A stretch of 64,000 nt of DNA from a candidate division WOR-3 bacterium (GTDB lineage Bacteria; Hydrothermota; Tepidihabitantia; SM23-42): NCBI GenBank assembly GCA_016936155.1, contig JAFGPO010000139.1:156-64155 (forward strand). The letters are read 5' to 3'. Below are positions 4,569-37,713 of the stretch, in pieces. Below the pieces are notes generated by a model, which saw only the letters and a program-made list of their open reading frames with translations, had not been told where the DNA came from and made no database searches. A program made the translations under genes and the position numbers. How positions within the stretch are numbered: position 1 is the first letter of the stretch; each line of letters begins with the position of its first letter.

Positions 4569-4795
4569 ATTAGCGTTTCGTGGAAACATAGTACAAAAGT
4601 AATATACTCTTGTCAAGAGGAAGGTAAAATCATTAGAATTCCCTGAAAATCACGACATATATTGTATAAATATTCACAAGGAAGACATAATTGTTAATAT
4701 ACTATTGAAATGGCAGGAATACATGACTACTTAGACTTAAACCTTATATTTGCGTGTAGAGAACACAGAGATAAACATCAAGTAAGGAGGAGTAT

Positions 4796-13745: not shown

Positions 13746-14987
13746 ATGGGAAAAGTCGTTCTTGCGTATTCCGGAGGTCTGGATACATCGGTATTGATTG
13801 CGATGCTCCGGGAGAAATATAACGCTCAAGTGATCGCCGTGACCATTGATTTGGGACAACATGAGGATCTCGCTGCGATCAAAGACAAGGCGCGCTCGAT
13901 CGGAGCGGTTGATGCATTCACGATCGACGCACGCGAGGAGTTCGCTCACAAGTACATCGTCCCATCATTACAAGCGAACGCCCTGTATGAGAATGTCTAT
14001 CCGCTCGCCACGGCGCTGGGACGCCCGCTGATCGCGGATAAGCTCATTCAAGTCGCACACGCGGTCAATGCGACCTCGATCGCGCATGGTTGCACCGGGA
14101 AAGGGAATGATCAGGTACGGATCGAGTCAGCGCTTGCATACCTTGACCCGTCAATTCATATTCTTGCGCCGGTCCGCGAGTTCTCTCTGTCACGTGACTA
14201 CGAACTTAAATACGCGCAGGAGCACGCGATTCCGGTTGAAAAAGCGGCAAGCACCTTTTCGATCGACGAGAACTTGTGGGGACGCAGCGCTGAATGCGGT
14301 GCTCTGGAGCAGGAGGATTGCGAGCCGCCAGAACAGGCCTTTGCATGGACCCAGTCCCCGCTTGATGCGCCGAATTACAGCGCGTACTGCGAATTGACAT
14401 TCGAACACGGCGTGCCAATTGCTTTCAATGGAAAACGCATGGCACTCGTCGATCTGATCCAGGAACTGAACCGGATCGGCGGGTTGCACAGTATCGGACG
14501 TATTGACCATATCGAATCCCGGCTGGTCGGCATCAAATCGCGCGAAGTATACGAAGCTCCGGCCGCAAAGATTTTAATCCAGGCGCATCAGGATCTGGAA
14601 AAGCTCGTATTGACACGGGACGTGCTCCACTTTAAGCCGGTTATCGAACATACGTTCGCGGATTGCGTATACAATGGCCTGTGGTTCTCACCGCTGCGCC
14701 AGGCATTATCCGGATTTACCACGCAGATACAGGAGAATATCACGGGAACCGTTAAAATGAGATTATACAAGGGATCAGCGATTGTGATCGGGCGCACTGC
14801 GGAAAAAGGGTTGTATGTCAAAGACCTGGCGACCTATGAAGGCGCCGATGAATTCGATTCGCGTGCGGCAAAAGGATTCATCCAGATCTGGTCTTTGCCC
14901 TATAAAGTATACTCGATCAAAAACAACGGGCATTCCGCGCGCGCGCTCCCGGATCTACCGGTTGCTGTTGACAGCACCGCAATCTGA
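13746..14987 (+). CDS. argG: Argininosuccinate synthase
   Basis: N-terminal KVVLAYSGGLDTSV ATP-binding motif. Family-typical sequence runs the full length (HGCTGKGNDQVR). Confidence 0.95.
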   Translation: MGKVVLAYSGGLDTSVLIAMLREKYNAQVIAVTIDLGQHEDLAAIKDKARSIGAVDAFTIDAREEFAHKYIVPSLQANALYENVYPLATALGRPLIADKLIQVAHAVNATSIAHGCTGKGNDQVRIESALAYLDPSIHILAPVREFSLSRDYELKYAQEHAIPVEKAASTFSIDENLWGRSAECGALEQEDCEPPEQAFAWTQSPLDAPNYSAYCELTFEHGVPIAFNGKRMALVDLIQELNRIGGLHSIGRIDHIESRLVGIKSREVYEAPAAKILIQAHQDLEKLVLTRDVLHFKPVIEHTFADCVYNGLWFSPLRQALSGFTTQIQENITGTVKMRLYKGSAIVIGRTAEKGLYVKDLATYEGADEFDSRAAKGFIQIWSLPYKVYSIKNNGHSARALPDLPVAVDSTAI

Positions 14988-20017: not shown

Positions 20018-21814
20018 TTACCGTATCAATAATACTTTGTCTGAGATATGCTGATCCTTGCTCGTGACATGCAGGAAATACACGCCGTTTGCAACCAGCG
20101 CGCCGCTGTGATCCCTGGCATCCCAGGTGATGTGTGGATCCGTGACCCGGGCGTACCTGCGTACAAGACACCCGCTCGCATCGTAGATCATGATGTCCAC
20201 GGGAGAGGAACAGCTCTTGAGGATGATATTCAGCGTATTCGTGAACGGATTCGGCATCGCGTTCATTATTATGACATGCTTTTTATTAATTTCGTTGCTT
20301 CCGAGAATGATCGGGACGGTCACGTCGTCGACGTACCAGCCTTCGTCAATGACGCTCTGGTCGCTCAAGAAACGGAAGCGGAGCCGTACGGTTTGACCGT
20401 GATATGCGGTGAGAGCATGGACCTTTTCGATCCATGATGTCTGCATGCCGTTCAGCTCACCGAGAATCTGCCACCAGCCCTTGTTGTTGTCGATCTCCAC
20501 GTAGCTGTAATCCCAGTCGGTTTCCAGCCGGTACTGGGTCCAGTAGTGGAGCGCGCTGTCCGGGGTTACGACAAAATACGGAGAGATGAGGGATGCGTCA
20601 TTGAGATTAGTGTATTGGTGCGAGGACTCGAGTCCGCTGTACCAGGAGTGACTCGATGAATGGCTCTTATGGGTCGTGAGGTGCCAGTTGTCATTGATGC
20701 CGCCGAATCCCGAATGTGTCCACTGCCCTTCGCCCGATTCCATGTCATCACTGAATCCGGATTGGTCAACGACCAGGAACGAGACATCATCCTGATATCC
20801 GCCGCCGAAAACCACCGCAAACGTCCATGTGTACGGTGTCGGACAACTGCCGGTCACGAATGCATCGACCGTGATCACCACATCAGCATCACCCTGTTCC
20901 AAGGACACTGATTGCGGGCTCGTGGAATTGACTGTCACGTACGGATCGGACGATGATATCGCCGCGGGGCCCGTGTAGGTTCCGCCGCCCTGATTCTTGC
21001 CCGTGATGTACAGGCGCATGGACTCGCCCGGTTCGACAAACCCGTTGCCATTGCCGCTCAGTTCATCAACCGAGTGCCCGTAGTAATCCATGCGCGGCGT
21101 GCTCATGATCTTGATCTCTACCGCCTGGTAGATCTCGCGCGATGATCCCTGGACAAACGATACGATATAGCATTCGTCTTCATCCCAGGTATTGTCAATC
21201 GTGAAGGCTTGAGACCGGATGATTGTGTCGCTTGCCGGGATCGTGACCGCAGTGCCGGTGGCGCTGGGCACCATATCCCTCATTACGTGATCGACATCAG
21301 TCATCCCTCCCCAACTGTAGGGGATATTATTCTCGATGACCACAAAGTGCAGGTTGCCGCTGATCGCGCTGCTCGTGGTATTCTCCACAAGCGCGGTGAT
21401 CGTGCCGGTATTGCTGCCGGAATTGTATGAACAGGTCAGATCGATGATCAGGGGACTGGAAATCCCGGCTCGTGTTGTCAGATGATGACGGTAGATGGGA
21501 AACATGGTTCCGGGAAATGCTACACCACCAGTTTCCTGTATTGATCCGTCGATCCTGACGATCGGCGTGCCGGTGATGCTGTAGTAACTGGCACGCTGTG
21601 ATGCTTCGGCAGTATAGAACGGATAAGATGATGAGATGTGGTAGCCTATGACTACTAATGAATCATAGGAACGATCATGATTTTCAGCAAGACCTCTTGC
21701 TGCTCCAGGGCAGTATGCTCAACCCCCGACCCGGGTAAACTCCTCCATGACCACGACGCGCTGCGCCGCAAACGCGGTGGCGAGAAGAAGAAAAACAAGA
21801 CATATCTTTTTCAT
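20018..21814 (-). CDS. T9SS-sorted secreted protein with N-terminal thioredoxin-like domain, with in-frame TGA (21721-21719) as candidate selenocysteine (UxxC)
   Basis: SD AAGGAG precedes ATG 21814. Signal peptide is MKKICLVFLLLATAFA. Then VVVMEEFTRVGG-TGA-AYCPGAARGL continues in frame into the 495-aa track ORF. The C-terminal CTD reads IMIYDASGCLV...NGVYFLHV...KVLLIR. A pseudogene is the alternative. Confidence 0.6.
21685..21702 (-). other. Candidate bacterial SECIS stem-loop
   Basis: On the mRNA strand: UGA, 16 nt, then CAGCAAG-AGGU-CUUGCUG. The stem is a perfect 7 bp and the loop contains GGU. Confidence 0.45.
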
Positions 21815-21834
21815 ACCCATCTCCTTGTACTGTA

Positions 21835-21863: not shown

Positions 21864-22039
21864 GACTTTAGGATAGTAAAGATACCACTCTTCGATTACA
21901 AAGATAAATGAAAAATGACAGGGTAATGGCGTCCATGCAGAATTCCCTTTCCTCCTTGAGAGGAGGGGGCCTGGGTGAGGAGGGAACAGGAATATCTCGG
22001 TAATCTCAAATGTCAAGAAATAGCCATTTTTGCCATTTC

Positions 22040-22066
22040 TGTCAAAATCACTGACATATTTGTCAC
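22040..22066. promoter_or_regulatory. Distal upstream activator-like palindromes (TGTCA-N7-TGACA-N4-TGTCAC)
   Basis: Half-sites at 22040-44, 22052-56 and 22061-66. TGACATATTTGTCAC has the same architecture as the proximal site. Confidence 0.4.
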
Positions 22067-22135
22067 AAGAAATGTTTTCGCAAAGCGTTATTTTTCAATG
22101 CTTCACGCGAAATTGAATAATATGCCGCATAAACC

Positions 22136-22151
22136 GTGACAAATCTGTCAC
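22136..22151. promoter_or_regulatory. Proximal upstream activator-like palindrome GTGACAAATCTGTCAC
   Basis: Perfect 6-bp arms GTGACA / TGTCAC separated by 4 nt. Centre lies about 48 bp upstream of the -24 GG. Confidence 0.45.
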
Positions 22152-22190
22152 AACCGTAAAAATTTAACCCGAAATTTCGAGCCAAATCCC

Positions 22191-22206
22191 TGGCACGAAA
22201 ATTGCT
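22191..22206 (+). promoter_or_regulatory. Sigma-54 (-24/-12) promoter upstream of the RiPP precursor gene
   Basis: cTGGCACGaaaaTTGCTt matches YTGGCACG-N4-TTGCW at every specified position. GG is at 22192-93 and GC at 22204-05. Confidence 0.65.
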
Positions 22207-22327
22207 TATATATACTAAGTACATTTATATAGTGGACAGGCATGAAAAAGTAGAGTTCCACATATTCGTATTGTGCTTTGTTGTTTCCCGGGAATATGAA
22301 GCCATTGTGAAAGGGGGTGAGTTCAGC

Positions 22328-22474
22328 ATGCATGATAAACTACGATCGTCGATTGATCAAGCAGGTCTTAAAGAGGACTTTCTTGCTATGGCCGATCAGG
22401 CTTATGGAACAGTTCCTAAGTGTGGCATAGCATGTGCTCCTGGGTGCATTATCATGAGTCCTGCTATTGAATGA
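22328..22474 (+). CDS. RiPP precursor peptide candidate (48 aa, CX3CX3C core)
   Basis: MHDKLRSSIDQAGLKEDFLAMADQAYGTVPKCGIACAPGCIIMSPAIE. SD AAGGGGGTGA sits 7-8 nt before the ATG. It is the in-frame C-terminal part of track ORF 22202..22474. The radical-SAM gene starts 58 nt downstream. Confidence 0.6.
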   Translation: MHDKLRSSIDQAGLKEDFLAMADQAYGTVPKCGIACAPGCIIMSPAIE

Positions 22475-22485
22475 GAAACACCGGA

Positions 22486-22511
22486 GTGGGGGGTGAATGT
22501 TTGCCCCCCAC
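22486..22511 (+). promoter_or_regulatory. GC-rich stem-loop between the precursor and maturase genes
   Basis: GTGGGGGG-tgaatgtttg-CCCCCCAC. Perfect 8-bp stem with no T-run after it. Confidence 0.5.
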
Positions 22512-22532
22512 CTGTACTGTAAGAGGTATAAC

Positions 22533-23969
22533 ATGATAGAGTGTGATATTAATGATATAATGAAAAATAATTTACGTATTGTGTTGAATCCGAAATTACG
22601 GATGCGTAAGGATATCGATAGAATATATATATTCCCGGTGAATCCCTTTACCTACCAGGAAAAGAACAAACGCATTTACATCAAACCCGCAGAAGCTGTC
22701 ACGCTTGCGCTATTTGATGGTAAGAAGAGGTTAATCGATGTCGTTCATGATATCACAAACATACTACACATTACTGAAGATACCGCGACGCGCATCATTA
22801 GAAATATTATAAAGCGCTACAATGAGTATATGGTCGATGTAGATCGACTAACCGACGAGATTATCACCTATGATCCAGTTGATTTTATTATCCCGAAAGA
22901 AAAGATTGATACCCATACAATTTTCCCCAAAATTCCTGAAATTATCATGTTTATCCCCACTTTTGCCTGTAATTTTGCCTGCAGGTATTGTTATGCGCCA
23001 AAGAGTGCACCCCGTAATGTTCTTCATTTGGATATTATTGATTCATTCCTGAAACAACTTGCAAAATGGAAGCTACCATCCCTTTTCTTCTCGGGCGGAG
23101 ATCCTTTTTGCCATCCACACATCACAGATATCCTGCAATTATGTGTCAATTATAAGATTAAACCTATTATACCGACAAAATCGATACTAACGCGCGATCA
23201 GATAGCATGTTTGCAAAAACTCGGCATAGATGAGATACAAATGAGTATTGACACAATCCAGCCGCAAAAATGCTGTGACCTGCTTGGTGCGAGAGAAAGC
23301 TATATGAATGATATGCTCCAGCAGATTCGATTCTTAACCATGAATGGTATCAAGGTGTATTCGAACAGCGTGCTCACATCCAGTACTATTCATGCCATTC
23401 CCTTGTTGGTGGAACACCTTTACGCACTGGGGGTGCGACGCATGAGTTTCAGTCAGTATTCCCGCTCCTTATTCTGCCATCAGGACGAGTTATTCTGCAA
23501 ATCGGAGAGCTATGAGTGGTTTGATCACGAAATTCAAATGCTGCAACAACGGTTTCCGCAATTGAAAATTTCATATAAAAATATGAAGGATCCGACTTTC
23601 ATGACACAGCAGGAAAAAGAGGCTTTTTTTCAGAACCGCCCAAATTGTACGGCAGGGAAGATGGGCGTGGTTATCTTACCCGATGGAAAAGTTACCGTGT
23701 GTGAAACGCTATATTACAACAGCGATCTAATGCTTGGTGACCTTCAACAGACATCGATAGAGGATATATGGAATTCCGCAGAACGCCATAATATAATAAC
23801 GCGATCACCACAAAGATTGACTTCAGATATCTGTACATCATGCCCGGAAGTCGAATATTGTTATCTTATAAAAGGAAAATGTTATGTTCGTGCGCTCCAG
23901 GCGTATGGCAGCGTTAAGATGCCCGATCCATACTGCCCCAAGAGCCCAGCGGGGAGGAGGATATTGTGA
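22533..23969 (+). CDS. Radical SAM / SPASM-domain peptide maturase with N-terminal RRE (PqqD-like) region
   Basis: CX3CX2C cluster in FIPTFACNFACRYCYAP. C-terminal auxiliary-cluster cysteines occur in CTAGKMGVVILPDGKVTVC and CTSCPEVEYCYLIKGKCY...PYCP. The ~100 aa before the cluster look like an RRE. Start chosen at ATG 22533 (SD AAGAGGT); ATG 22497 is the alternative. Confidence 0.85.
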   Translation: MIECDINDIMKNNLRIVLNPKLRMRKDIDRIYIFPVNPFTYQEKNKRIYIKPAEAVTLALFDGKKRLIDVVHDITNILHITEDTATRIIRNIIKRYNEYMVDVDRLTDEIITYDPVDFIIPKEKIDTHTIFPKIPEIIMFIPTFACNFACRYCYAPKSAPRNVLHLDIIDSFLKQLAKWKLPSLFFSGGDPFCHPHITDILQLCVNYKIKPIIPTKSILTRDQIACLQKLGIDEIQMSIDTIQPQKCCDLLGARESYMNDMLQQIRFLTMNGIKVYSNSVLTSSTIHAIPLLVEHLYALGVRRMSFSQYSRSLFCHQDELFCKSESYEWFDHEIQMLQQRFPQLKISYKNMKDPTFMTQQEKEAFFQNRPNCTAGKMGVVILPDGKVTVCETLYYNSDLMLGDLQQTSIEDIWNSAERHNIITRSPQRLTSDICTSCPEVEYCYLIKGKCYVRALQAYGSVKMPDPYCPKSPAGRRIL

Positions 23970-25186
23970 TGATAAAAGCTGGGGTTCTTGGCAAATGCGA
24001 CTTTGTTTTTCTTGAGAAACCTATTTTCACAAATATATATGGAGTACAAATTAATTGCGGTTCTCAGGATGATCCTGTCGGCACACCAGGCATCGCTCAT
24101 CTTCTTGAACATGTCATTTTTCATTCGAGTCCAGCCCAGGATATTATCCGTGGGGGAGGGTGCGTACAGGCCATGACAGAGCGTGAAAAAACTACGTATA
24201 TCTGCCAGATTCCCACTAACTACAACTGCCTTTTCAATCGATTTCTAGATTCCATTCTCACTCCCGCTTTTAATCAGGAGAGCATTCACAAAGAGAAACA
24301 AAGTGTATTAGATGAATATGCTGCAGTACATAAAGATGGAATCGTTAGAATCATTGATTCATTATACCAACTCATGTTTCCTAAGCAGGGACTGGGCAAG
24401 CCAGTACTCGGCTGCCCAGCAGCTATTCAGCAGATCGAAGTCGAAGACCTTGTTACTTTTCACGCAAAACACTATCAACTATCGAATATTGTTGTCATCC
24501 AGATGGGTTCAGCGATCAATTCCACATATATGCCGAATGGTGGGGTGTTTCGTCATGTGCATAGAACGGATTCATTCAGCACCAAGATCAATACCGGAAT
24601 GCCCAAATTCGGTTGGGAGGTTTCTTCCACAAACAGTAATATATTTCTTCTTGGTTTCCCGGTTTATACAGGAAGTGATAATAAAAAAAGTGCCTTGGTT
24701 CTCCTTGAACGGATGCTCCAACGGTTTGCCGATGAATATGTCATGTCATGCAATGACCTGCATGCTTTAACCTGGCAGTTTTCATTTCAATGCAAGCTCT
24801 ACCGTGATGTCGGAATTCTGTTTTGTCTTATTGCTGGAAAGGGGCAAATCTGTAAACGATTTCTCAGTCAGTTGCGCGAAAAAGTAAAGCAGTTCATCCG
24901 GAATGGATTTACCGATATGCAAATATATGATACTTATAAATTCAGCATAAATTACCACCATACTATGATTGCAGATCCGCTAACGGAAATCAAGACTGCC
25001 TTGCAGGACGTGATTCAGAGTGCAAACATCGGGGAGTATGAAGGGCGAGTTACATCTCCGATTTCAAGGGTAAACAGAAATGTAATGAACACTGTTGCGG
25101 AGTATATTTTTGCGCCTTCTGCTATGCATTATTACGCGAAATGTAGTGCTGATATGTACAGTCTACCGTACATTATACACATATGA
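23969..25186 (+). CDS. M16 (pitrilysin) family zinc peptidase, probable leader peptidase
   Basis: Inverted zincin motif HLLEH (GIAHLLEHVIFH). Downstream motif EKQSVLDEY. The start overlaps the maturase stop (TGATG). Confidence 0.8.
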   Translation: MIKAGVLGKCDFVFLEKPIFTNIYGVQINCGSQDDPVGTPGIAHLLEHVIFHSSPAQDIIRGGGCVQAMTEREKTTYICQIPTNYNCLFNRFLDSILTPAFNQESIHKEKQSVLDEYAAVHKDGIVRIIDSLYQLMFPKQGLGKPVLGCPAAIQQIEVEDLVTFHAKHYQLSNIVVIQMGSAINSTYMPNGGVFRHVHRTDSFSTKINTGMPKFGWEVSSTNSNIFLLGFPVYTGSDNKKSALVLLERMLQRFADEYVMSCNDLHALTWQFSFQCKLYRDVGILFCLIAGKGQICKRFLSQLREKVKQFIRNGFTDMQIYDTYKFSINYHHTMIADPLTEIKTALQDVIQSANIGEYEGRVTSPISRVNRNVMNTVAEYIFAPSAMHYYAKCSADMYSLPYIIHI

Positions 25187-26142
25187 AATTGCATTCTCAA
25201 AGAGATGGTGCTCCGGACGTAGCAATACAAGTCGAGAAACTGAATAAATGCTATGGTTCCAAGCAGGTACTTGATAATGTGAGTTTTTCAGTGAAGAGGA
25301 GTGAGTGTTTTTGCCTTTTAGGTCCCAATGGCGCCGGTAAAACCACGGCCATGAAGATCATCACTGGAATGTTGAGTGGAGACACCGGAATCGTTGAAGT
25401 AAAAGGTATGACCATTACTGAATTACGCAAAAGAGAACGTGGATACATTACGTTAATCCCGCAATATGCTAATCTTGATCCCTTGTTAACAGTTGAAGAA
25501 AACCTGATCTTTTATGGATTGCTTCAGAAGATGAGATACAAGGAAATACACTCCAGAGTCGTCAAATTACTGCGGGTATTTGAGATCGCCCATCTAAAAA
25601 AACAGGTAACCCATCGTTGTTCAGGAGGCGAATACCAGCGCTTGTTGGTTGCCAGAGCGTTCTTGCGACCAGCCGAGATCATTTTTATGGATGAGCCAAC
25701 TGCTGGCATCGATATATTATTTAAAAACATACTTTGGGACTATTTTATTGAGGAAAAAACACGAGGGAGGACGATATATTTGAATACTCACGACCTGAAT
25801 GAAGCAGAAGTCCTGGCTGATCGAATAGGATTTCTATTACATGGAAAGCTCATTGCCATTGATACACCGAGCAGATTAAAATCTCTTGTGCAGGGTGTGC
25901 ATGTATCCGTGAAATGTAGTAATATCATATATCACACAGAGTTGTTCGCAGAGCATAAACACACGCTGATAGATGATAAGACCATTGTGTTACAAGTTGC
26001 TACTGTTGACGCTGCTATTATAAGGTTACTTGAGAGGTTATCCACTATCAACCATATCCTTAATGTTGAGATCACTCAGCCTTCCCTCAATGACGTTTTT
26101 AAGAAACTTGGGGCAGTGAATGCTAGCGATACTGTGGCGTGA
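25183..26142 (+). CDS. ABC transporter ATP-binding protein (ABC-2 type exporter)
   Basis: Walker A GPNGAGKTT. Signature CSGGEYQRL. Walker B IIFMDEPTAGID. ATGA overlap with the M16 gene. Confidence 0.9.
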   Translation: MKLHSQRDGAPDVAIQVEKLNKCYGSKQVLDNVSFSVKRSECFCLLGPNGAGKTTAMKIITGMLSGDTGIVEVKGMTITELRKRERGYITLIPQYANLDPLLTVEENLIFYGLLQKMRYKEIHSRVVKLLRVFEIAHLKKQVTHRCSGGEYQRLLVARAFLRPAEIIFMDEPTAGIDILFKNILWDYFIEEKTRGRTIYLNTHDLNEAEVLADRIGFLLHGKLIAIDTPSRLKSLVQGVHVSVKCSNIIYHTELFAEHKHTLIDDKTIVLQVATVDAAIIRLLERLSTINHILNVEITQPSLNDVFKKLGAVNASDTVA

Positions 26143-26878
26143 AATCCGGCTCCATTATACAAAGCCATACTGGCTGATAGCCAATTTTGTTACACCGCTA
26201 TTCTATTTAGCGTTCTTTGGAGTTTTATTTTCCAACGCGATCAATACTGTAACTTTTCATGGCTCTGAATTCAGTTATCTTCATTTTTTTATTCCCGGGC
26301 TTATCGCTATGCAATCCTTTTTATCATGGTCCCACACACTTGCGCTCGTGAACCTTGATCGACGAGCCCGCGTTCTTGAAGTGATTTCCATGTCCTCGAC
26401 ACATCTTGATGAATATTTTTATGGACGTCTCATTGGCACACAAATTCTGGTCATTATCAAGACCTCGGTATTGCTGGGTATTGCAGTAATATTCTTTAAT
26501 TTTCCCGTAAGGTGCGTATACAGCATAGTAATCTTCGTTCTATTATTGATCATAAGTAATTGCATATGGTTCAATATTGGATTCATATTGGGATTCCTGA
26601 TTCGAACAGAGGACATACGTGACATAGTAATGCAGTTGATTACTCTACCTCTTACCTTTTTGTCCAATATCTATTATCCCGTTGAGAGCCTTACTGGCAT
26701 TTTACGCGCAATTGTATACGCAAATCCATTGACTCACGCCACAACTGTCATTCGTATAGTTCTCCTCATAAATGGAAGCATCCAGATTTCCTCCATCGTC
26801 ATATTGAGCATATACTTCACTATTACTATTATACTGGTTTATATAGGTCTACATAAATTCTGCGCTCGTCTGGAGTAG
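26120..26878 (+). CDS. ABC-2 family transporter permease
   Basis: 252 aa with about 6 hydrophobic segments. Overlaps the ATPase gene by 23 nt. Confidence 0.75.
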   Translation: MLAILWREIRLHYTKPYWLIANFVTPLFYLAFFGVLFSNAINTVTFHGSEFSYLHFFIPGLIAMQSFLSWSHTLALVNLDRRARVLEVISMSSTHLDEYFYGRLIGTQILVIIKTSVLLGIAVIFFNFPVRCVYSIVIFVLLLIISNCIWFNIGFILGFLIRTEDIRDIVMQLITLPLTFLSNIYYPVESLTGILRAIVYANPLTHATTVIRIVLLINGSIQISSIVILSIYFTITIILVYIGLHKFCARLE

Positions 26879-26933
26879 TAGATATTCCAAATGGTTCTAT
26901 CGATATAGCTAAACGACATAAAAATCTGTCACA

Positions 26934-28084
26934 ATGGCAATGATTGAATCATCGCCATTATGGAAGAACCGATCGTTTATACTCTACCTGGTTGGTCAGT
27001 CGATCTCTGCGCTCGGCGATGACTTCTATCTCATCGCATTCATGTGGCTTGCAATGGAGATCTCCGGTGGCAGGGGAATTGCGGTTGGTGGTATTTTCAG
27101 CATTTATATGCTCAACGAAGTTGTATTTGGGTTTATTGCTGGACCGATCGCCGATAGAATAAACAAAAAGAGACTATTGATTTTTGTCGATGTCATACGC
27201 GGCTTGTTTGTCGTAATCCTGTTCATGCTCGTAAGGCGTGGAATGGCAACCATTACGCAGCTCTATGTTATCACGTTTTGCTTTTCGTTGGTCTCGCCAT
27301 TCTTTCATCGGACCGAATTCACCATAATCCCCTTTATTCTGGACGCAAAAGTGCTGCTGCGTGGCAATGGAACACTGGCTGGGTTCCGGCGCCTTATGCA
27401 GGTGATCGCTCCGGCAATAGGTGGTGTGGTCATTGCCCTGATTGGCATTGAGAGTTGTTTCCTCATCGATAGTATAACCTTCTTCATTTCATCGGTATGC
27501 ATCGCAGGTGTGGCTGTAAAGCAAGTCCAGCAGAAAAAGGAAGTTCTTACCTTGGAGGCCCGATACTGCCATTGTTGCCTCTGCTCGCTCAGAAGAGAGA
27601 TGTCGGGGCTTCCGGGTATGGTATCATGATGAGCGCTCTTTCCGTGGGTCTCATTGTTTCTGGATTCATTATTGGATTTTTTGAAAAGTGTTTCAGCAAG
27701 ATACGGTTGATTTTGGTTGGTTTGTTATTATCATCAATATCCATTCTCTTGATTGGCGTATATCCCCGCGCTTTTGTAATCGTCGGATCGATGTTCCTGC
27801 TTGGTCTAGGTTTGAATATTTCCAATTTACCTATCATTACTCTTTTTCAAACCAAAGTTAATCCGGCAAAAATTGGTGTTGTCTCGAGTTTTGTATTTAC
27901 AATTGCCCAGGCCGCACAGCCGATTTCCATTGCTTTAAGCGGTATTCTCGCGGATTTCATCATCTTGAATACCTTATTTATTATAATTGGAACTCTGTTA
28001 CTCCTTGGAACCATAATCGGCTTTCTCCTCGCGCAATTTAGAGAAAACAAGACCATCTTCATTAATATCAAAGAATCGCATTAA
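26934..28084 (+). pseudogene. MFS transporter (MFS_3 / EntS-like), disrupted
   Basis: Two overlapping ORFs in different frames (26934..27629 and 27497..28084). The N-terminal half has about 6 TMs and the C-terminal half only about 5. The frame change lies near the A5 run at 27533-27538. Confidence 0.6.
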
Positions 28085-28120
28085 TAAATGAATAATATCT
28101 CAAAACAATCATATTCAAAA

Positions 28121-28155
28121 TTGAACAAATTGGGGCCTGTCCCCATTTTGTTCAA
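28121..28155. repeat. REP-like palindromic hairpin (left)
   Basis: TTGAACAAATTGGGG-CCTGT-CCCCATTTTGTTCAA. 15-bp arms with a single mismatch. Confidence 0.7.
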
Positions 28156-28185
28156 TTTCAACTAAGAGAAAAGATAAGAGAATAG

Positions 28186-29055
28186 ATGGCGCGAGGATCT
28201 CGTTTGGTCGCTGCTGGTCTGTACCACCACGTATTTAATCGGGGCAATGATCGCCACCCGATATTTAAGCGGGAGGAGGATTACCACAGGTACTTGCGAT
28301 ATTTAGAGATTTTTAGTCCCACATTCAATATCAACATTGTCGCATTCACGTTGATGGAATGGCACATTCACTTGTTTCTATATGATAGAAAAGGGGAAAT
28401 GTCGTCTTTTATGCATTTGTTGCACGGTAAATACGCACGTTTGTATAATATATGTCACGAAAGGACAGGCCATGTGTTTACCGATCGATTCAAGAACAAA
28501 ATAGTGGATACAAATACATATGGTAAATGGCTATCTCGATATATTCACCGTCAGGCGGTGGATGCTGGCCTTGTAGAAAAGGCAGAGGATTATCCCTGGA
28601 CCAGCTATCATCACTACATCGGTCGAACGGAAATGCGTTTTGTATCTTCTGATACGATACTGGAGCAATTCAGTGAAAATAAGCAAGAACAAGTTTCATT
28701 ATACAGAAAATTCATTGAAGATGAGGAAGCAGGCCCAATAGACTGGAGACAAACGGAAATAAATGTCAATCCTATTATTGGAAATAGAGAATTTATTGAG
28801 AAAATGACTCGAAAATTAGGATTATATGATAAAAAATCATGTGAAATGCAGGATGTAATAGAGAAAATCTGTGTTGATTACGGCGTTAATCTTGACGCTA
28901 TGAAATATCCATCCGGAAATAAAGAACGAGCTACACGTCGGTATTTAATAAAAATGCTAAATCACAACCGCGGGATGAGTGTATCAGCGATTGCAAAAGG
29001 TTTGAATATCTCAAAAGGTCTTGTTTCAATGACATTGAATAATGAGGAATATTAA
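28186..29055 (+). CDS. REP-associated tyrosine transposase (Y1_Tnp / IS200-like) fused to a C-terminal DnaA-domain-IV-like HTH
   Basis: HUH motif WHIHLFL. Catalytic-Tyr context LSRYIHRQAV. The N-terminus YHHVFNRGNDRHPIF is typical of COG1943. The C-terminus RRYLIKMLNHNRGMSVSAIAKGLNISKGLVS resembles Bac_DnaA_C. Confidence 0.8.
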   Translation: MARGSRLVAAGLYHHVFNRGNDRHPIFKREEDYHRYLRYLEIFSPTFNINIVAFTLMEWHIHLFLYDRKGEMSSFMHLLHGKYARLYNICHERTGHVFTDRFKNKIVDTNTYGKWLSRYIHRQAVDAGLVEKAEDYPWTSYHHYIGRTEMRFVSSDTILEQFSENKQEQVSLYRKFIEDEEAGPIDWRQTEINVNPIIGNREFIEKMTRKLGLYDKKSCEMQDVIEKICVDYGVNLDAMKYPSGNKERATRRYLIKMLNHNRGMSVSAIAKGLNISKGLVSMTLNNEEY

Positions 29056-29065
29056 GTAATAATAA

Positions 29066-29100
29066 TTGAACAAAATGGGGACAGGCCCCAATTTGTTCAA
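29066..29100. repeat. REP-like palindromic hairpin (right, inverted copy)
   Basis: TTGAACAAAATGGGG-ACAGG-CCCCAATTTGTTCAA. Exact reverse complement of the left copy. Confidence 0.7.
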
Positions 29101-29124
29101 TTTTGAAGCGAAAAAATAGTTATT

Positions 29125-29826
29125 TTACCCCGATAATTTAAATTGGATTGGTATTGAAACCCAGACCTTTACGGGTTTGCCGGCGTGGCTGGCTGGTTCG
29201 AACACGGATTGTTTCACCGCGGACAGGGCTGCGTTGTCCAGGGATTCATCGCCGCTCGAGGCGTACACTTCAGTTGCGCTGATGCTCCCGTCAAATTCAA
29301 TGAGCGCCCGCACCACGGTCCGGCCTTCAATGCCGTTTTTCCGCGCCTGCTCCGGGTACTCGGGTTTTACGATGTTTACAGGCGTAGGTTTTACGTCGAC
29401 AATATGGTAGGCAATGATATTCGGATCCTTTTCAAGATCTGTTGGTGTTTGGGCATGATGATCAGTCAATGTAAACCTGATCGGGATTGACACCCACACC
29501 CGGACCGGCTTGTCCCCGTGGCGCGCCGGCTTGAACATGGCAGCCTGCACTGCCTCGAGCGCGGCATTGTCCAAAATTTCAAATGAACTGGATTTCTGTA
29601 TCATGGCTTGCTCTATCCTGCCGTCCGCCCCAACCAGCACTTTGGTCAGGATATCGCCCTGAATACCTTGATTTTTCGCTTGTTCTGGGTATACGGGTTT
29701 GGGAAGGGAAATGGGTTTTGGCTTGACCTCGACGTCGTCATACGCCATGACCGGGGCCTGGGATGAACATGTGATGCACAGGCACAAGACTATACTGGTA
29801 ATCGCCAGGACGATCACATTCTTCAT
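29125..29826 (-). CDS. TonB-family protein with two tandem TonB C-terminal domains
   Basis: The unit KP.YPE.A...GI.G...V...I..DG.I......SSG...LD.AAL.AV....F.PA.H.GKPV.VWVSIPI.F occurs twice. N-terminal signal/anchor. Confidence 0.75.
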   Translation of the reverse strand: MKNVIVLAITSIVLCLCITCSSQAPVMAYDDVEVKPKPISLPKPVYPEQAKNQGIQGDILTKVLVGADGRIEQAMIQKSSSFEILDNAALEAVQAAMFKPARHGDKPVRVWVSIPIRFTLTDHHAQTPTDLEKDPNIIAYHIVDVKPTPVNIVKPEYPEQARKNGIEGRTVVRALIEFDGSISATEVYASSGDESLDNAALSAVKQSVFEPASHAGKPVKVWVSIPIQFKLSG

Positions 29827-29948
29827 AATTCCTCCTCAATTAATGATAATGCCGGGTGGATGCTTGTCAAGAGGCGAAAACCATAGAACATTCACTCCTT
29901 GACATGGACAAAAGAACCTCCTACAATATGGAGAAACAAGGAGGCGGT

Positions 29949-31331
29949 ATGGTAACATTACTTGTATATTTTGTGATATCCCAGCAGTGGTCGACGCCGG
30001 TGAATCTGGGCATATCCGGGATCGCCGATATTTACCCGCAAACACACAGGTCCCAGCAATGGTGGACGGATTCCCTGTGCCTCATGTGGCAGGCGTTTCA
30101 GGATGATAACTGGGAGATCTATTCGCGTTTTTCAACGGGATCGGCATGGAGCGATACGATCCGCGTCACCAATGATCCTTCTGATGACATACATCCCAGT
30201 GTCACCTATGACCCTTATTTGCACCGGTTCTGGTGTGTGTGGGAACGTGATGGTGATATCTATGCGTCCTATTACCAGTCACCATCATGGTCGATACCAG
30301 AAGCAATAACCAGCGGACCAGCATATGATCAGGATCCATCCATCTTTTGCCAGGATTCTTTTGTCCGCGTCGTGTGGCAGAGAACAATCAATGATTCCAC
30401 GAATATCTATGCCAGTTATCGCGTGTTATATTCTTCATGGGCTACTCCTGTTCCAATAACCCAGGACCAGGGAATTCCGAACGTCACGCCAAAGCTCAAT
30501 GCGGGCAATAATTACGCGATTGCCGTATGGCAGCATGGAGATGACATATATTACAGCACGAACAGCAGCAATTACTGGACAGCACCGCAGGCGATCACCA
30601 CCACATCGGCGCAGGAAATGTTCCCGGATGTTAATAGTTTTGACAACGGCTCAGTGTGCATTTGCTGGCAGTCTGATTCAACCGGCGATTATGAGATATA
30701 CCGGACTGCTGTAGATACATTCACCACCTATTACCGGGTCACGAATAACACTGCAGATGATTGGAATCCCTGTCCGCTTTTTTATACGATTCCGATTCTG
30801 CAATGGGAAATACCCATGATCCTGTTTGCGAGCAGGCGAAACGGCAACTTTGATATTTTTTCCTGGCTTGATTGGTCCGGAGCGGTTCCTGTGGACACGG
30901 ATCCGGGACAGGATATCAATCCGGTTTGCACGGCCAATTTTGATGTCTACATCTGGGCGCTGTGGCAGAGCGACCGGAACGGTGATTGGGACATCTATGG
31001 TAGTTACCAGTTCAATCCAGGAAGCGTGGCGGAATCAGGTGAAGATCTTGCTGTTCCCTGGTGTACCGTGATCCCGAATCCGTTCCGAACTGAAACGCGT
31101 ATTGCGTATGGCGTAAGGCGTACTACAGCAGATAATACAGAAATCAGGATCTATGATATTGCTGGTATGTTAGTGAAATGTTGCCCTCGCAGTACGCATG
31201 ACGCATTACGCTGTACGATCATCTGGGATGGTACCGATCACTCAGGGCATCCGGTGGCGCCTGGTGTGTATTTCGTGCGGATTGAAACCGATCAAGGGGT
31301 GTTTCCGCGAAAAATCATAAAGATCGATTGA
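29949..31331 (+). CDS. Secreted repeat (beta-propeller-like) protein with T9SS C-terminal sorting domain
   Basis: Start at ATG 29949 after GGAGG. At least 7 repeats of the W(Q/E)..(D/N)..(W)(D/E)IY type. CTD reads NPFRTETRIAYGV...IRIYDIAGMLV...IIWDGTDHSGHPVAPGVYFVRI...KIIKID. Confidence 0.6.
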   Translation: MVTLLVYFVISQQWSTPVNLGISGIADIYPQTHRSQQWWTDSLCLMWQAFQDDNWEIYSRFSTGSAWSDTIRVTNDPSDDIHPSVTYDPYLHRFWCVWERDGDIYASYYQSPSWSIPEAITSGPAYDQDPSIFCQDSFVRVVWQRTINDSTNIYASYRVLYSSWATPVPITQDQGIPNVTPKLNAGNNYAIAVWQHGDDIYYSTNSSNYWTAPQAITTTSAQEMFPDVNSFDNGSVCICWQSDSTGDYEIYRTAVDTFTTYYRVTNNTADDWNPCPLFYTIPILQWEIPMILFASRRNGNFDIFSWLDWSGAVPVDTDPGQDINPVCTANFDVYIWALWQSDRNGDWDIYGSYQFNPGSVAESGEDLAVPWCTVIPNPFRTETRIAYGVRRTTADNTEIRIYDIAGMLVKCCPRSTHDALRCTIIWDGTDHSGHPVAPGVYFVRIETDQGVFPRKIIKID

Positions 31332-31358: not shown

Positions 31359-33587
31359 TTATTTTGCGAGGAGCACTTTTTCCGTAAACATCGTTGTCCC
31401 ACTCTGCAGACGGATAAAGTAAATCCCTGCCGGGAGAGCGGTTCCCTTATCATCGGTTCCGTACCACCGCAGGTGCGACGGTTCAATACGTTCCGGGCGC
31501 TGCACGTACGTTCTTACACGGGCTCCGGCAATATCATATATTGAAATCGTAATTTCCGCCTCCGCAGGATAAAAAGAAATTGTCGTGGAGGAGGAAAATA
31601 CGGTTGGTTCCGCCGATAAAAACGGCTGTACCTGAACAATCGGACTAACTTGCTCCTTGATACCAACGGTTACATCCGCAGGTTCCAAGCATGAGTAATC
31701 ACCCCAGTCCCAGATCGTGTTACATCCACGCACCAGATAGTGGTACAAACCGTCTGGATGGTTGGTGAAGCTGTAAAGCGTATCCGGGATGTTGTCGGCG
31801 ACAGTATCGATGTTCGCGAAGATACACGAGGGAGCAATGTCATCAACATAAAAGCCGCCACTCGTCGTGCTTCCATCATACATGCACCGGAATCGCACGT
31901 ATATTGATGTACCTTCCCATGCGGCAAGCGAATACGCGGCGTGGAACCATGCCGTGTTATTGCCCGTGAAGCGCGTGGTATCGAGATTGAACCACTGTTT
32001 GGTATTTTCCGATACTTCCACTACGGCAACGTCGTAGTTGTTCTCAAGGTTGGACCGGTAGAAAAAGGAGACCGAATCCCCGGCGTGCACCAGGTAAGGA
32101 TGTTTTGAGACGAACGCGGTGTTCTGGCGGTTGGTATTCCCGGACCAGAGACTATGGGTTCCCGAGTGCGCCTGGGAAGTGGTCATGGTGAAGCCGTTGA
32201 GCACCCAGCGATCCGATCCGCTCTCAAGGTCATCGGTAATGACTGAGGGATCTGCGAGCTCCACCAGTTCCCAGCAAACGGGATGATTTTCATCTGGATT
32301 GACCGCATGCCATGTTACGCTGAAGTTCGGACCCACGGTTCCTATAGGGTATATGGAGGGCGGCGCGACCTCGCCCTCGCATAGAATTTGGATCGAATCC
32401 CGGCATAGTTCTGCGTACAGTTTTAAACCCTTGAAGTTCTCGCGGCAGATGTGATCAAGATTGCCCACGGGCTGGTAGAACGACGTACCAACTTCAGTCA
32501 AATACGCAAGGCACGGTCGTCCTGAAACCCAGTGTCCGTATGAGTACATCCAGTCAATACTGCCGCCACCCAGGGGATAGAGTACCGAATATGTTTGTCC
32601 GGCATTATAGGTTCCGCCGCTGATACGATTTATTTGATTTGATATCCGCGCGCCGAAGCGCTCAAAAACTGTTGAATCCGGTGAACCAACGGGCGTCCAT
32701 CCCCACGGCCACATTATTACCTCACCATAACTGTGGTAGGACATATTCGCATGGATCTGATGCGCGTAGAAGTACTGCGTGAGACCGCGCGTTTCATCGC
32801 CTGAATTCACATTGGCGCCGCAGAAGGTGGTACTCGATGGGTAGTGGGATGCTTCACCTTCATCTACTGCGCCCCAATCACCTTCAATATCCGGACCGCA
32901 CCCGCCGTAATTACGATTGCAATCCGTTCCAATGTACCCCTGGAATGGTTCGCGATTCTTGCGCCACATATTGCCGGACGGGTAATCATACACAAAACCG
33001 TCCGCATTAATGATCGGAAACAGGTACATTTCCAGATTATCCACCAGATCGGTTATTTCAGGCACCACACCATAACTATTCAGGATCGAGTCAGTAAAAA
33101 AGAGCACGACTTCAATGACCGCCCACTCGCGCGAGTGGTGCAGTGCATCCACGAGCAGACCTGGCTCGTTATCCTCTTCGATATGGGGATTGTCAGAGAT
33201 CTTCACCCCGTACAACCATCGTCCTTCATGCGTTGGGATCGGCAGTGAATCAAATGTGCAGATCGCCGGGAAATCGTTCGCCATATCACGCAGCATGATA
33301 TTCACGGTATCATATGAATGATATTGACCGCGTAGGTGCTCTCTGGCAAGCGCAATGCTTGGTACGGTGATTTCATATGTCAAACCCGATCCGATAATGC
33401 GGTCCATAGTAGTCCGGTCGGTTACGATGTCATACCACTGTCCGCGCTGAACACCTGCGATATCCAGTTCGAATTTCGGCGAGATACGGGATAGATCGTC
33501 CCAGGAGGAGGTGTAAACACGCACGATCATATCCCCGGCATGAGCGATTACAGCCGTACAAAGAATAAGAAGAAAAAGCATTTTCAT
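31359..33587 (-). CDS. M14 family zinc carboxypeptidase with T9SS C-terminal sorting domain
   Basis: Zinc-ligand context HHSREW. INADGFVY and WRKNR motifs. Signal peptide MKMLFLLILCTAVIAHA. CTD reads ISIYDIAGARV...PAGIYFIRL...KVLLAK. Confidence 0.85.
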   Translation of the reverse strand: MKMLFLLILCTAVIAHAGDMIVRVYTSSWDDLSRISPKFELDIAGVQRGQWYDIVTDRTTMDRIIGSGLTYEITVPSIALAREHLRGQYHSYDTVNIMLRDMANDFPAICTFDSLPIPTHEGRWLYGVKISDNPHIEEDNEPGLLVDALHHSREWAVIEVVLFFTDSILNSYGVVPEITDLVDNLEMYLFPIINADGFVYDYPSGNMWRKNREPFQGYIGTDCNRNYGGCGPDIEGDWGAVDEGEASHYPSSTTFCGANVNSGDETRGLTQYFYAHQIHANMSYHSYGEVIMWPWGWTPVGSPDSTVFERFGARISNQINRISGGTYNAGQTYSVLYPLGGGSIDWMYSYGHWVSGRPCLAYLTEVGTSFYQPVGNLDHICRENFKGLKLYAELCRDSIQILCEGEVAPPSIYPIGTVGPNFSVTWHAVNPDENHPVCWELVELADPSVITDDLESGSDRWVLNGFTMTTSQAHSGTHSLWSGNTNRQNTAFVSKHPYLVHAGDSVSFFYRSNLENNYDVAVVEVSENTKQWFNLDTTRFTGNNTAWFHAAYSLAAWEGTSIYVRFRCMYDGSTTSGGFYVDDIAPSCIFANIDTVADNIPDTLYSFTNHPDGLYHYLVRGCNTIWDWGDYSCLEPADVTVGIKEQVSPIVQVQPFLSAEPTVFSSSTTISFYPAEAEITISIYDIAGARVRTYVQRPERIEPSHLRWYGTDDKGTALPAGIYFIRLQSGTTMFTEKVLLAK

Positions 33588-36402: not shown

Positions 36403-37647
36403 CTATCGAGTAACCACGACTTTCTCTATAAAAGCCGCGTTACGCGTTTCAAGGACAGCAAAGTATACCCCTGCACAAAGGTCAAGCGGAATCTTCCATT
36501 GCACAACGTGCGGTCCAACATGCGCGCCGGGAAGGATCACCTCATCGATCATGCGTCCTGATATCGAATAGATACATAATCGCGCACGATCAGAGACAGA
36601 CACCATGCAGGAGAACGACGCGACATGCTGTACGGGATTCATGATGATGCGAAAATGACCGGGTACCGACGTGACACTGCGGTTGAGCGCGCCACCGCTG
36701 ATCGTCACGTTCTCGCAGAGCCAGACATACCCGTCCTGCCCGCCCAGAATGATGTCGAGGTCACCATCCCTGGTCCAATCCGTGCAGTGGATACGTGAGT
36801 TCGTGTAGCCGTCAAGAAAGACGCTGTCCTCGGTCATGAGTGTCTCGTACTGAACTTCAAAATACGGGGCCTGATTTGTCGCACGGTTCTTAAAAAAATA
36901 AAGGAAGCCGTTTTCATTGCCGCATACCAGATCTTTCAAGGAATCCCCGTCCAGATCGAATATCGCAGGGTGCGCGTGCACAACTTCCAAATGACCACCG
37001 CCCGCCTGCATGAGCTGGTAACCGCGGAAAAAGGGAACGGCATTGGTGCCGAAATTGAGATAAACGCGGATATTACCGGTATCCGGCAGTACGTGCTCGA
37101 TTTCACCGATGATCAGGTCTTTTTTGCCATCCTCGTTCCAATCATGGATGCACGGGCAACTGTTCGCTGAAACCCTGACATCAACCTGCATGCCGCTGCT
37201 GTCGTGCTGGATGTGACCGGCATTATGCAAGCCGCTTCCGGTTTCTAAAAAGAGGGTGGTGTAACCGTCGCTGTCCCCGGCGATCAGGTCGCGTTGTCCA
37301 TCTTCATTCCAGTCGCAAACTGCGACTGTTGCGCCCTGGCATCAGCTGAACGGGAGGGTGATAACTGAACCATCCGCGTACACATATTCAGGCGCGGCGA
37401 ACAGTGGATCGTTGGTCGAACCGATGTTTTCATAAAAGAGGATGTGACCGTATACGAATTGTCCGACGAGCAGGTCCTTGTCGCCGTCCGTATCCCAGTC
37501 ACATACATGGGGCGCGCTGAAGAATTCCACCCGGAGTGTTTCCCCGGCAGCGAGCAGGTTTTCCGGGGAAAGAAAGAGCGGGGTCTGCGCATATCCGTGC
37601 AGCCCAAGCAGCAATAGAGCGAGAACGATCGATCGGAGGATATTCAT
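36403..37647 (-). CDS. FG-GAP/VCBS-repeat T9SS cargo protein interrupted by one in-frame TGA (37344-37342): candidate selenoprotein or pseudogene
   Basis: Signal peptide MNILRSIVLALLLLGLHGYAQ. Repeats: CDWDTDGDKDLLVG, CDWNEDGQRDLIAG, HDWNEDGKKDLIIG. Reading ...VITLPFS-TGA-CQGATVAVCDWNEDG stays in one frame across track ORFs 37342..37683 and 36403..37230. CTD at the C-terminus. Confidence 0.5.
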
Positions 37648-37713
37648 CTTCATATAGTATAATAGGGAACAGAACCTGGTCAACAGACAGTTGTAATGGT
37701 ATTCCCGCTGTTA

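Follow-up and report, generated by a model that had tools for sequence, protein, structure and literature searches.

We analysed a 64,000-nucleotide stretch of DNA from a candidate division WOR-3 bacterium (GenBank assembly GCA_016936155.1, contig JAFGPO010000139.1), hereafter called the window, for a minus-strand gene that is interrupted by an in-frame TGA. An earlier note on this DNA had proposed that an ATG at 21814, led by a Shine-Dalgarno sequence, opens a frame that passes through the TGA into an annotated 495-aa open reading frame (ORF), so that 103 codons had been missed. All of this was confirmed on the sequence. The ATG at 21814, the TGA at 21721-21719 and the 495-aa ORF at 20018-21505 belong to a single minus-strand frame of 598 codons, in which MKKICLVFLLLATAFAAQRVVVMEEFTRVGG is followed by the TGA, then by AYCPGAARGLAENHD and the remainder of the segment that leads into the ORF. 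No ATG, GTG or TTG is found between the TGA and Met104, and the annotated ORF is therefore 103 codons short (598 versus 495). An architecture of about 600 residues is common to the full-length orthologues L086, L087 and L104 (L numbers designate retrieved loci). Based on the comparative sequence analyses described below, the TGA very probably codes for selenocysteine (Sec) at the active site of a thioredoxin-like protein that is secreted to the cell surface.

Conservation of the TGA codon and Sec/Cys pairs

In alignments of the orthologues, the column of interest is occupied by TGA in the close relatives of the window protein and by Cys in distant homologues. The first homologue (L001, 42% identity) has a TGA at exactly the same column, in the context EEFTSTG(TGA)PSCPGAA. 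The first genome scan yielded about 80 relatives, nearly all of them with Cys-x-x-Cys; its search pattern contained a Cys codon and was thus biased to Cys forms. For this reason, the search was rerun in metagenomes using a query without the CxxC region and therefore blind to the motif column. It returned 59 loci, with TGA in 13 of them, a TGC or TGT (TGY) codon in 45 and TGG in a single one (L113). Every close relative carries TGA, namely L139 (97% identity), L086 (80%), L087/88 (64%), L089 (60%), L090 (57%), L104 (55%), L112 (52%) and L135 (44%), plus the fragments L141 and L144. These close relatives stem from at least 10 different metagenomes. The 45 TGY loci are more distant from the window protein. 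As for L113, it harbours TGG (Trp) at the Sec/Cys column (~1461) and an additional in-frame stop just upstream, CE(stop)FTATWWPYCPG, and probably represents either a copy in decay or a contig of low quality.

Further TGA forms were found in loci from NCBI/ENA metagenome-assembled genomes (MAGs) or assemblies, L145, L146 and L147 (two tandem copies), and TGA also stands at this column in L001, L080 and L142/143. Altogether, independent assemblies provide no fewer than 17 distinct TGA forms, with protein identities of 44-97%, in which the frame is intact on both sides of the codon, and about 100 other homologues have a TGY (Cys) codon there. Sec and Cys paralogues coexist in one genome in the L080 tandem pair, and likewise in a MAG that contributes both L006 (Cys) and L145 (TGA). 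In a neighbour-joining tree, the Sec forms of the window clade group together. L001, L080 and L142 represent separate Sec occurrences nested among Cys forms, with hairpins that all differ from one another.

The L080 pair (1181-2845 and 3001-4668) belongs to a Bacteroidetes MAG and consists of tandem Omp28-like type IX secretion system (T9SS) paralogues, one with TGA and one with Cys. Its TGA form had been picked up by the first genome scan in spite of the bias to Cys forms. In the TGA form, the sequence CTGTW(TGA)SFCPGSA precedes a 10-bp bulged hairpin with a GGUGUG loop, making this an independent Sec occurrence in the family. L142/L143 (2812-3561) code for a small (249-aa), distant Omp28-like paralogue with TGA in FSSTN(TGA)EYCKRA. 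Its perfect 8-bp hairpin, AAACGUGC-GGA-GCACGUUU, starts 9 nt past the TGA, and the UGA-to-loop spacing of 17 nt lies at the short end of the range for bacterial selenocysteine insertion sequence (bSECIS) elements.

A bSECIS-like hairpin under RNA-level selection

The perfect 7-bp hairpin that the earlier note had placed 16 nt past the TGA is indeed present at 21702-21685. Its folding energy is -9.9 kcal/mol, and 3 of 200 shuffled sequences fold equally well. Published bSECIS criteria comprise a stem of 4-16 bp, a loop of 3-9 nt with a G within its first two positions, 16-37 nt between the UGA and the loop and a minimum free energy (MFE) of at most -7.5 kcal/mol (PMC13188914). With 7 bp, an AGGU loop, a spacing of 23 nt and -9.9 kcal/mol, the hairpin falls within every one of these limits. 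As a control for chance occurrence, we considered the 2,612 TGA triplets of the window: 2.8% of them precede a hairpin with bSECIS geometry at -7.5 kcal/mol or below, and for ~1% the hairpin has 7 bp or more and reaches -9.9 kcal/mol or lower. No bSECIS-type hairpin follows any of the 16 genuine TGA stops of the window. No Rfam family matched anywhere in the window.

The most telling test came from the codons of the hairpin. Two sets of sequences encode the same peptide, CPGAARGL: one of nine distinct TGA forms, the other of twenty Cys forms. All nine TGA forms use GCA GCA AGR GGN CTT GCY GAR and make 7/7 pairs, whereas the twenty Cys forms use scattered synonymous codons, including five Arg and five Leu codons, and make 2-5/7. 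Over 39 nt, the mean MFE is -10.9 +/- 1.3 kcal/mol for the TGA forms versus -4.6 +/- 2.8 kcal/mol for the Cys forms. The residue after this peptide is Ala in the Sec forms, with a GCY codon within the 3' arm, and mostly Asp in the Cys forms. Over 14 distinct TGA forms, pairing of the helix is 100%, versus 20-55% in slid controls. One compensatory change, A-U to G-C, was found in L144, and L145 and L146 have a G-C to G-U change together with an Ala-to-Val replacement. As the helix varies too little for covariation, our argument for selection on the RNA is built on the contrast between Sec and Cys codons. It indicates that the hairpin is kept at synonymous sites in TGA forms only, consistent with the proposal that a SECIS element lies just 3' of the UGA. 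The separate Sec forms L001, L080 and L142 each have a G-loop hairpin of their own, 9-15 nt past the TGA.

Domain organization of the predicted product

For the domain scans, Cys was put in for the TGA in the 598-residue product. The Pfam Omp28 model PF11551 matched residues 75-238 with 50.6 bits, above its gathering threshold (34.9). A profile of the N-terminal module matched the archaeal thioredoxins 1FO5 and 1NHO with E-values of about 1e-5. In these profile alignments, the TGA column, which is the first Cys of the family, falls on the initial Cys of CPHC/CPYC, and there is also alignment at the (Y/V)PT cis-Pro loop. The structural model of P0123, a Cys form at 59% identity from a WOR-3 MAG, has a predicted local distance difference test score (pLDDT) of 87 and a predicted template modelling score (pTM) of 0.81. 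It shows the succession b1-[CPYC]-a1-b2-a2-b3-b4-a3 followed by an eight-strand beta-sandwich, with b1 at residues 23-29 and CPYC at 33-36, right before helix a1 (36-49). The best match of this module in the Protein Data Bank, found with Foldseek, is HBP35 (5Y1A; E 1.9e-11, TM 0.62). By homology to P0123, the window protein is predicted to adopt a thioredoxin fold. The profile matches to 1FO5 and 1NHO, the P0123 model and the HBP35 match thus all argue for the thioredoxin-like CxxC/UxxC domain that had been proposed, and the TGA/Cys column pair, the hairpin and the fold together support the placement of Sec at its first Cys.

All homologues have hydrophobic N-termini equivalent to the signal peptide of the window protein, and the P0123 model has a helix at residues 4-17. 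The protein combines an N-terminal signal peptide with a C-terminal sorting domain above the cutoffs of PF18962 and TIGR04183, as expected for a T9SS type A cargo, and its predicted export agrees with the proposal of the earlier note. At least eight other ORFs of the window have Por_Secre_tail/FlgD_ig C-termini, which implies an active T9SS. No genes for the T9SS machinery (PorK/L/M/N, Sov, PorU/V) were found in the 64-kb window. The features of the gene are collected in Table 1.

Table 1. Predicted features of the TGA-containing gene, in the order of its transcription (window coordinates).
Feature	Position	Strand	Remarks
Shine-Dalgarno AAGGAG	21821..21826	-	6 nt 5' of ATG 21814; read from sequence
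Complete gene, predicted selenoprotein	20018..21814	-	598 codons including one in-frame TGA; stop TAG/TAA 20018-20020
Signal peptide MKKICLVFLLLATAFA	21767..21814	-	From sequence; cleavage probably AFA/AQ, predicted site
Thioredoxin-like domain, about residues 19-115	21470..21760	-	cis-Pro loop at TGTPIV; profile E 1e-5
In-frame TGA, predicted Sec codon, residue 32	21719..21721	-	Same column TGA in relatives
Putative U-A-Y-C redox motif (UxxC), residues 32-35	21710..21721	-	N-terminus of helix alpha1 of the thioredoxin fold
Predicted bSECIS hairpin CAGCAAG-AGGU-CUUGCUG	21685..21702	-	7 bp, 4-nt loop; 16 nt UGA to stem, 23 nt UGA to loop
Beta-sandwich domain, about residues 116-238	21101..21469	-	Forms the Omp28-related module with the thioredoxin-like domain
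InhA-like MAM domain, residues 383-502	20309..20668	-	Pfam PF20773, E 5.9e-13
T9SS C-terminal sorting domain, residues 521-594	20033..20254	-	PF18962 27.9 bits (cutoff 27); TIGR04183 27.8 bits (cutoff 23)

Stop-codon usage and selenium-related genes

The stop codons of the 37 Pfam-supported genes of the window are 16 TGA, 12 TAG and 9 TAA. The statement that TGA serves as a normal stop elsewhere in the window, exemplified by argG (Pfam-confirmed; TGA at 14985-14987), therefore holds. As TGA is the commonest stop of the window, the organism has no reassignment of this codon. A global reassignment (code 4 or 25) was ruled out, with TGA ending 16/37 genes and the column aligning to Cys rather than to Trp or Gly.

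With an approximate E. coli SelD query, tblastn detected selD at some 2.5 kb from the Omp28-like gene, in a total of 13 related loci: L112 (~3600-3991), L121 (~6200-6565), L115 (6044-6590), L009, L117-L120, L122, L123 and L125-L127. Two of the fragments scored above the TIGR00476 cutoff of 125 bits, L115 with 225 bits (Cys-type) and L112 with 156 bits (Sec-type). The active site is of the Cys type, AAGCAGK, in ten loci, and contains a TGA in L121, AAG(TGA)ASK, and in L112, CAG(TGA)ASK. A TGA at the catalytic G-[U/C]-x-x-K position is the hallmark of classic Sec-type SelD. On the single contig of L112, a TGA-form Omp28-like gene with the CAGCAAG...CUUGCUG hairpin is thus joined to a Sec-type selD, which indicates that Sec decoding operates in the broader lineage. 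The conserved selD neighbourhood comprises the Omp28-MAM-T9SS gene, a small Omp28-like paralogue, a small T9SS protein and selD. This proximity could be mere lineage synteny, or it could reflect a functional tie between surface thioredoxin-like proteins and selenium metabolism.

Several observations weigh against a Sec codon. We found no selA, selB, selD or tRNA-Sec in the 64-kb window or in the retrieved flanks of the closest orthologues. The Pfam scan of about 43 window ORFs revealed no SelA, SelB or SelD, the tRNA scan found no tRNA at all in the window and no tRNA-Sec among the 11 tRNAs of 144 loci, and a tblastn search of ~1 Mb of retrieved loci with E. coli SelA, likewise an approximate query, gave no match. 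The Sec trait of the window organism itself is thus something that we infer. The structural model is that of P0123 and not of the window protein. Covariation statistics alone are weak, given the near invariance of the helix: there is one compensatory pair, and 37 of 500 shuffles match the observed score, such that covariation was set aside as stand-alone proof of the hairpin. Lastly, the best NCBIfam match of the window protein, NF045500 "Omp28-related selenoprotein", was obtained with 63.4 bits (E 2.4e-17) against a curated cutoff of 200. That this best match is a UxxC selenoprotein family speaks for a Sec codon, as does the similar signature of a second gene in the window (see below).

Alternative explanations of the TGA

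The UGA might be recoded to an amino acid other than Sec, either to Cys by a SelB-like factor and a tRNA(UCA) or to Trp or Cys by hairpin-stimulated, near-cognate readthrough. Sec-to-Cys recoding variants have been described. Comparative sequence analysis cannot identify the inserted amino acid, and neither selA nor tRNA-Sec turned up in any retrieved sequence. Nevertheless, selD, responsible for the synthesis of the selenium donor, lies beside the homologous genes in relatives, where two of the selD genes are themselves of the Sec type, and the hairpin fits the consensus for SelB-dependent bSECIS elements. Moreover, Cys paralogues already share a genome with the TGA forms (L006/L145; the L080 pair), and a costly recoding just to obtain Cys would therefore make little sense. 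We consider this explanation very unlikely.

That the TGA is a genuine stop is less probable still. The gene would then code for a 31-residue leader, the downstream ORF would start at Met104 or remain untranslated, and the hairpin would be a regulatory element or an attenuator. This is how gene callers treat the TGA (P0002, and the 512-552-aa calls in L145-L147), and some termination is to be expected at any rate, as UGA decoding to Sec is never fully efficient. Yet the 71 codons between the TGA and Met104, although they contain no start codon, show strong protein-level conservation and account for helix alpha1, strand beta2 and the thioredoxin cis-Pro loop. A product starting from Met104 would have neither signal peptide nor thioredoxin domain, and the 31 upstream codons, with the signal peptide and strand beta1, would be useless alone.

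Finally, it is scarcely credible that the TGA arose through faulty sequencing or assembly, or through a recent TGY-to-TGA mutation that inactivated the gene and left a pseudogene. TGA is a single substitution away from TGC or TGT, and the relative L113 looks degraded. Yet the TGA is conserved in the 17 or more distinct sequences described above, and Sec forms occur separately at several points among the Cys forms of the tree. Wherever the TGA occurs, a hairpin kept at synonymous sites goes with it, and a pseudogene would not keep both its coding sequence and an RNA structure over such divergence.

Proposed decoding, export and function

What we propose for the Sec insertion, export, redox activity and substrate of the window protein is as follows. 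With the ribosome at the UGA, SelB-GTP-Sec-tRNASec would be recruited by the 7-bp hairpin with the AGGU loop located 16 nt downstream, and Sec would be inserted in place of termination, yielding a 598-residue pre-protein. Its signal peptide, of the general secretory type, would direct it to the periplasm, and the T9SS sorting domain would take it across the outer membrane to the surface or the medium. At the start of helix alpha1, U32 of the U32-x-x-C35 motif would replace the nucleophilic first Cys, and U32 and C35 may cycle between the selenol/thiol and selenenylsulfide states. The MAM domain would probably bind the substrate or the surface.

A second gene with an in-frame TGA

The window codes for a second secreted protein whose gene contains an in-frame TGA (36403-37653, minus strand). 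It has a signal peptide, FG-GAP/VCBS repeats and a T9SS-like C-terminus. The TGA, at 37344-37342, is found in the context LPFS(TGA)CQGATVAVCDW, which would give a U-C dipeptide. It is followed after 13 nt by a perfect 8-bp hairpin, CAGUCGCA-GUU-UGCGACUG (37310-37328, -12.4 kcal/mol). Five further orthologues, all distinct and 56-83% identical (L083, L084, L145, L146 and L147), keep both TGA and hairpin, and the TGA is also present in L085, an independent assembly of the same sequence as in the window. Pairing in the helix is 96%, with a G-C / G-U / A-U series at one pair; here also, variation is too small for covariation to provide stand-alone proof. The corresponding dipeptide is Cys-Cys in one full-length homologue and Trp-Cys in another; in distant homologues, the Cys is preceded by Gly or Asn. 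No FG-GAP/VCBS selenoprotein was found in the review PMC13188914, in the BSepDB, deep-Sep or Haft & Gwadz texts or by direct literature search. Thus, the FG-GAP gene is a candidate for a new selenoprotein family.

TGA-form Omp28-like and FG-GAP genes are neighbours in L145 (7825 and 9953), L146 (7833 and 9953) and L147 (3705, 5772 and 9953), being adjacent in L145 and L146. In the window, the two genes are 15 kb apart. The Omp28-like UxxC and FG-GAP proteins might represent a small set of T9SS-exported surface selenoproteins of WOR-3-like sediment bacteria that form an extracellular module for selenium-dependent redox reactions or selenium capture instead of acting as unrelated oxidoreductases, an idea prompted by this proximity and by the selD neighbourhood of Omp28-like genes in related clades, but this is a speculative idea that we consider rather doubtful.

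Genetic surroundings

Directly upstream of the Omp28-like gene (window 22000-30000), a drop in G+C content, from ~0.52 to ~0.41, marks a block that codes for a radical SAM/SPASM enzyme (22497-23969), an M16 peptidase, an ABC transporter pair, an MFS fragment and an IS200-like transposase (28186-29055). The block has the look of an island gained by horizontal transfer that serves the maturation and export of a peptide of the ribosomally synthesized and post-translationally modified type. T9SS cargo genes are unusually numerous in the window, e.g. at 454-1980, 4796-7633, 29856-31331, 31359-33587, 37791-38996 and 46452-47405, and this cargo includes an S8 protease, an M14 carboxypeptidase with a MAM domain and a Kelch propeller. 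The window also codes for three large signalling proteins of the AAA/TPR type that contain cyclase or GGDEF domains. A 10.9-kb Logan contig matches window positions ~29-40 kb.

Implications for annotation

The clade to which the window gene belongs is systematically mis-annotated, with products cut to 495-552 aa or to fragments down to 178 aa. The cut products have lost the signal peptide and the catalytic domain. In addition, the curated NCBI selenoprotein model does not reach this clade. The selenoproteomes and secretomes of uncultured bacteria of the Fibrobacterota-Chlorobiota-Bacteroidota type are therefore underestimated. The predicted product would place selenocysteine on a large multidomain protein delivered to the surface by type IX secretion. 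The family provides a natural series of Sec and Cys paralogues, sometimes in one genome, with which to ask why Sec is retained in an extracellular oxidoreductase. Together with the selD linkage, the FG-GAP candidate offers testable leads on the role of surface selenoproteins.

Comparison with known systems

Like the fdhF-type bSECIS of E. coli, the window hairpin lies within coding sequence, immediately 3' of the UGA, and its binding by SelB is predicted. It differs from the fdhF element by the absence of the bulged U, and it has no homology to it beyond a short string. That string is AGGUCU, which is present in the fdhF minihelix as well, in agreement with the earlier note. In keeping with the bSECIS consensus (Zhang & Gladyshev 2005, via PMC13188914), the second position of the 4-nt apical loop is a G, and another G comes next.

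The window protein resembles HBP35 (hemin-binding protein 35) of Porphyromonas gingivalis in having a thioredoxin domain with a CxxC motif or its counterpart, a beta-sandwich and a T9SS C-terminal domain. HBP35 was also found with the sequence profile of the module (E 1.1e-4). It is a surface protein secreted by the T9SS/PorSS, with CxxC-dependent thioredoxin (insulin-reduction) activity (PMC2907840, PMC3120885). Unlike the window protein, it has Cys rather than Sec and is devoid of a MAM domain, and identity in the structural alignment is 17%. Hemin binding and the role in haem acquisition are specific to HBP35. The earlier note had called an exported UxxC redox domain unusual for a T9SS substrate. 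It now appears less so: as HBP35 is experimentally established, there is nothing unusual per se about a thioredoxin-like domain on T9SS cargo, and a UxxC Omp28-related selenoprotein has already been catalogued.

The Cys homologues are named "Omp28-related outer membrane protein" by NCBI, and the window protein passes the gathering threshold of the Omp28 family (PF11551). However, that model spans residues 75-238 only, and the CxxC/UxxC part lies outside it. In contrast with the Omp28 lipoproteins, the window protein has a type-I-like signal peptide without a lipobox Cys, plus a T9SS C-terminal domain. The Omp28 lipoprotein family NF033782 was ruled out, with 55 bits against a cutoff of 150.

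Other UxxC selenoproteins with a thioredoxin fold (table of PMC2398784) also have Sec as the N-terminal nucleophile, and many of them are predicted to be extracytoplasmic. They are periplasmic or membrane-anchored, single-domain proteins, unlike the multidomain T9SS cargo of ~60 kDa described here. Our literature search yielded no paper linking selenoproteins to type IX secretion or to Omp28.

The closest known relative is NF045500. With 63 bits, below the curated cutoff, the window protein lies outside this equivalog and membership was ruled out. The other Sec and Cys forms that we collected scored between 43 and 73 bits, and none reached 200. According to a 2026 review, NF045500 is "hypothetical protein GOS_C", a UxxC protein with one Sec (PMC13188914). 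GOS_C was described with 74 Sec sequences and 312 Cys homologues, a thioredoxin-like fold and unknown function (Zhang & Gladyshev 2008, PMC2398784). It shares with the window clade the thioredoxin-like fold, a UxxC motif with a single Sec, the many Cys homologues and a SECIS right after the UGA. The correspondence of its U with the TGA column of the window is deduced from the fold, which contains one CxxC only. The reads that defined GOS_C came from marine surface water, whereas the window clade comes from sediment-type metagenomes and WOR-3/Stahlbacteria-like MAGs, has additional MAM and T9SS sorting domains and possesses its own conserved SECIS sequence. As NF045500/GOS_C has already been catalogued, we count the clade as a known kind of selenoprotein: the window gene represents a divergent, mis-annotated clade, distantly related to a selenoprotein family that has been on record since 2008.

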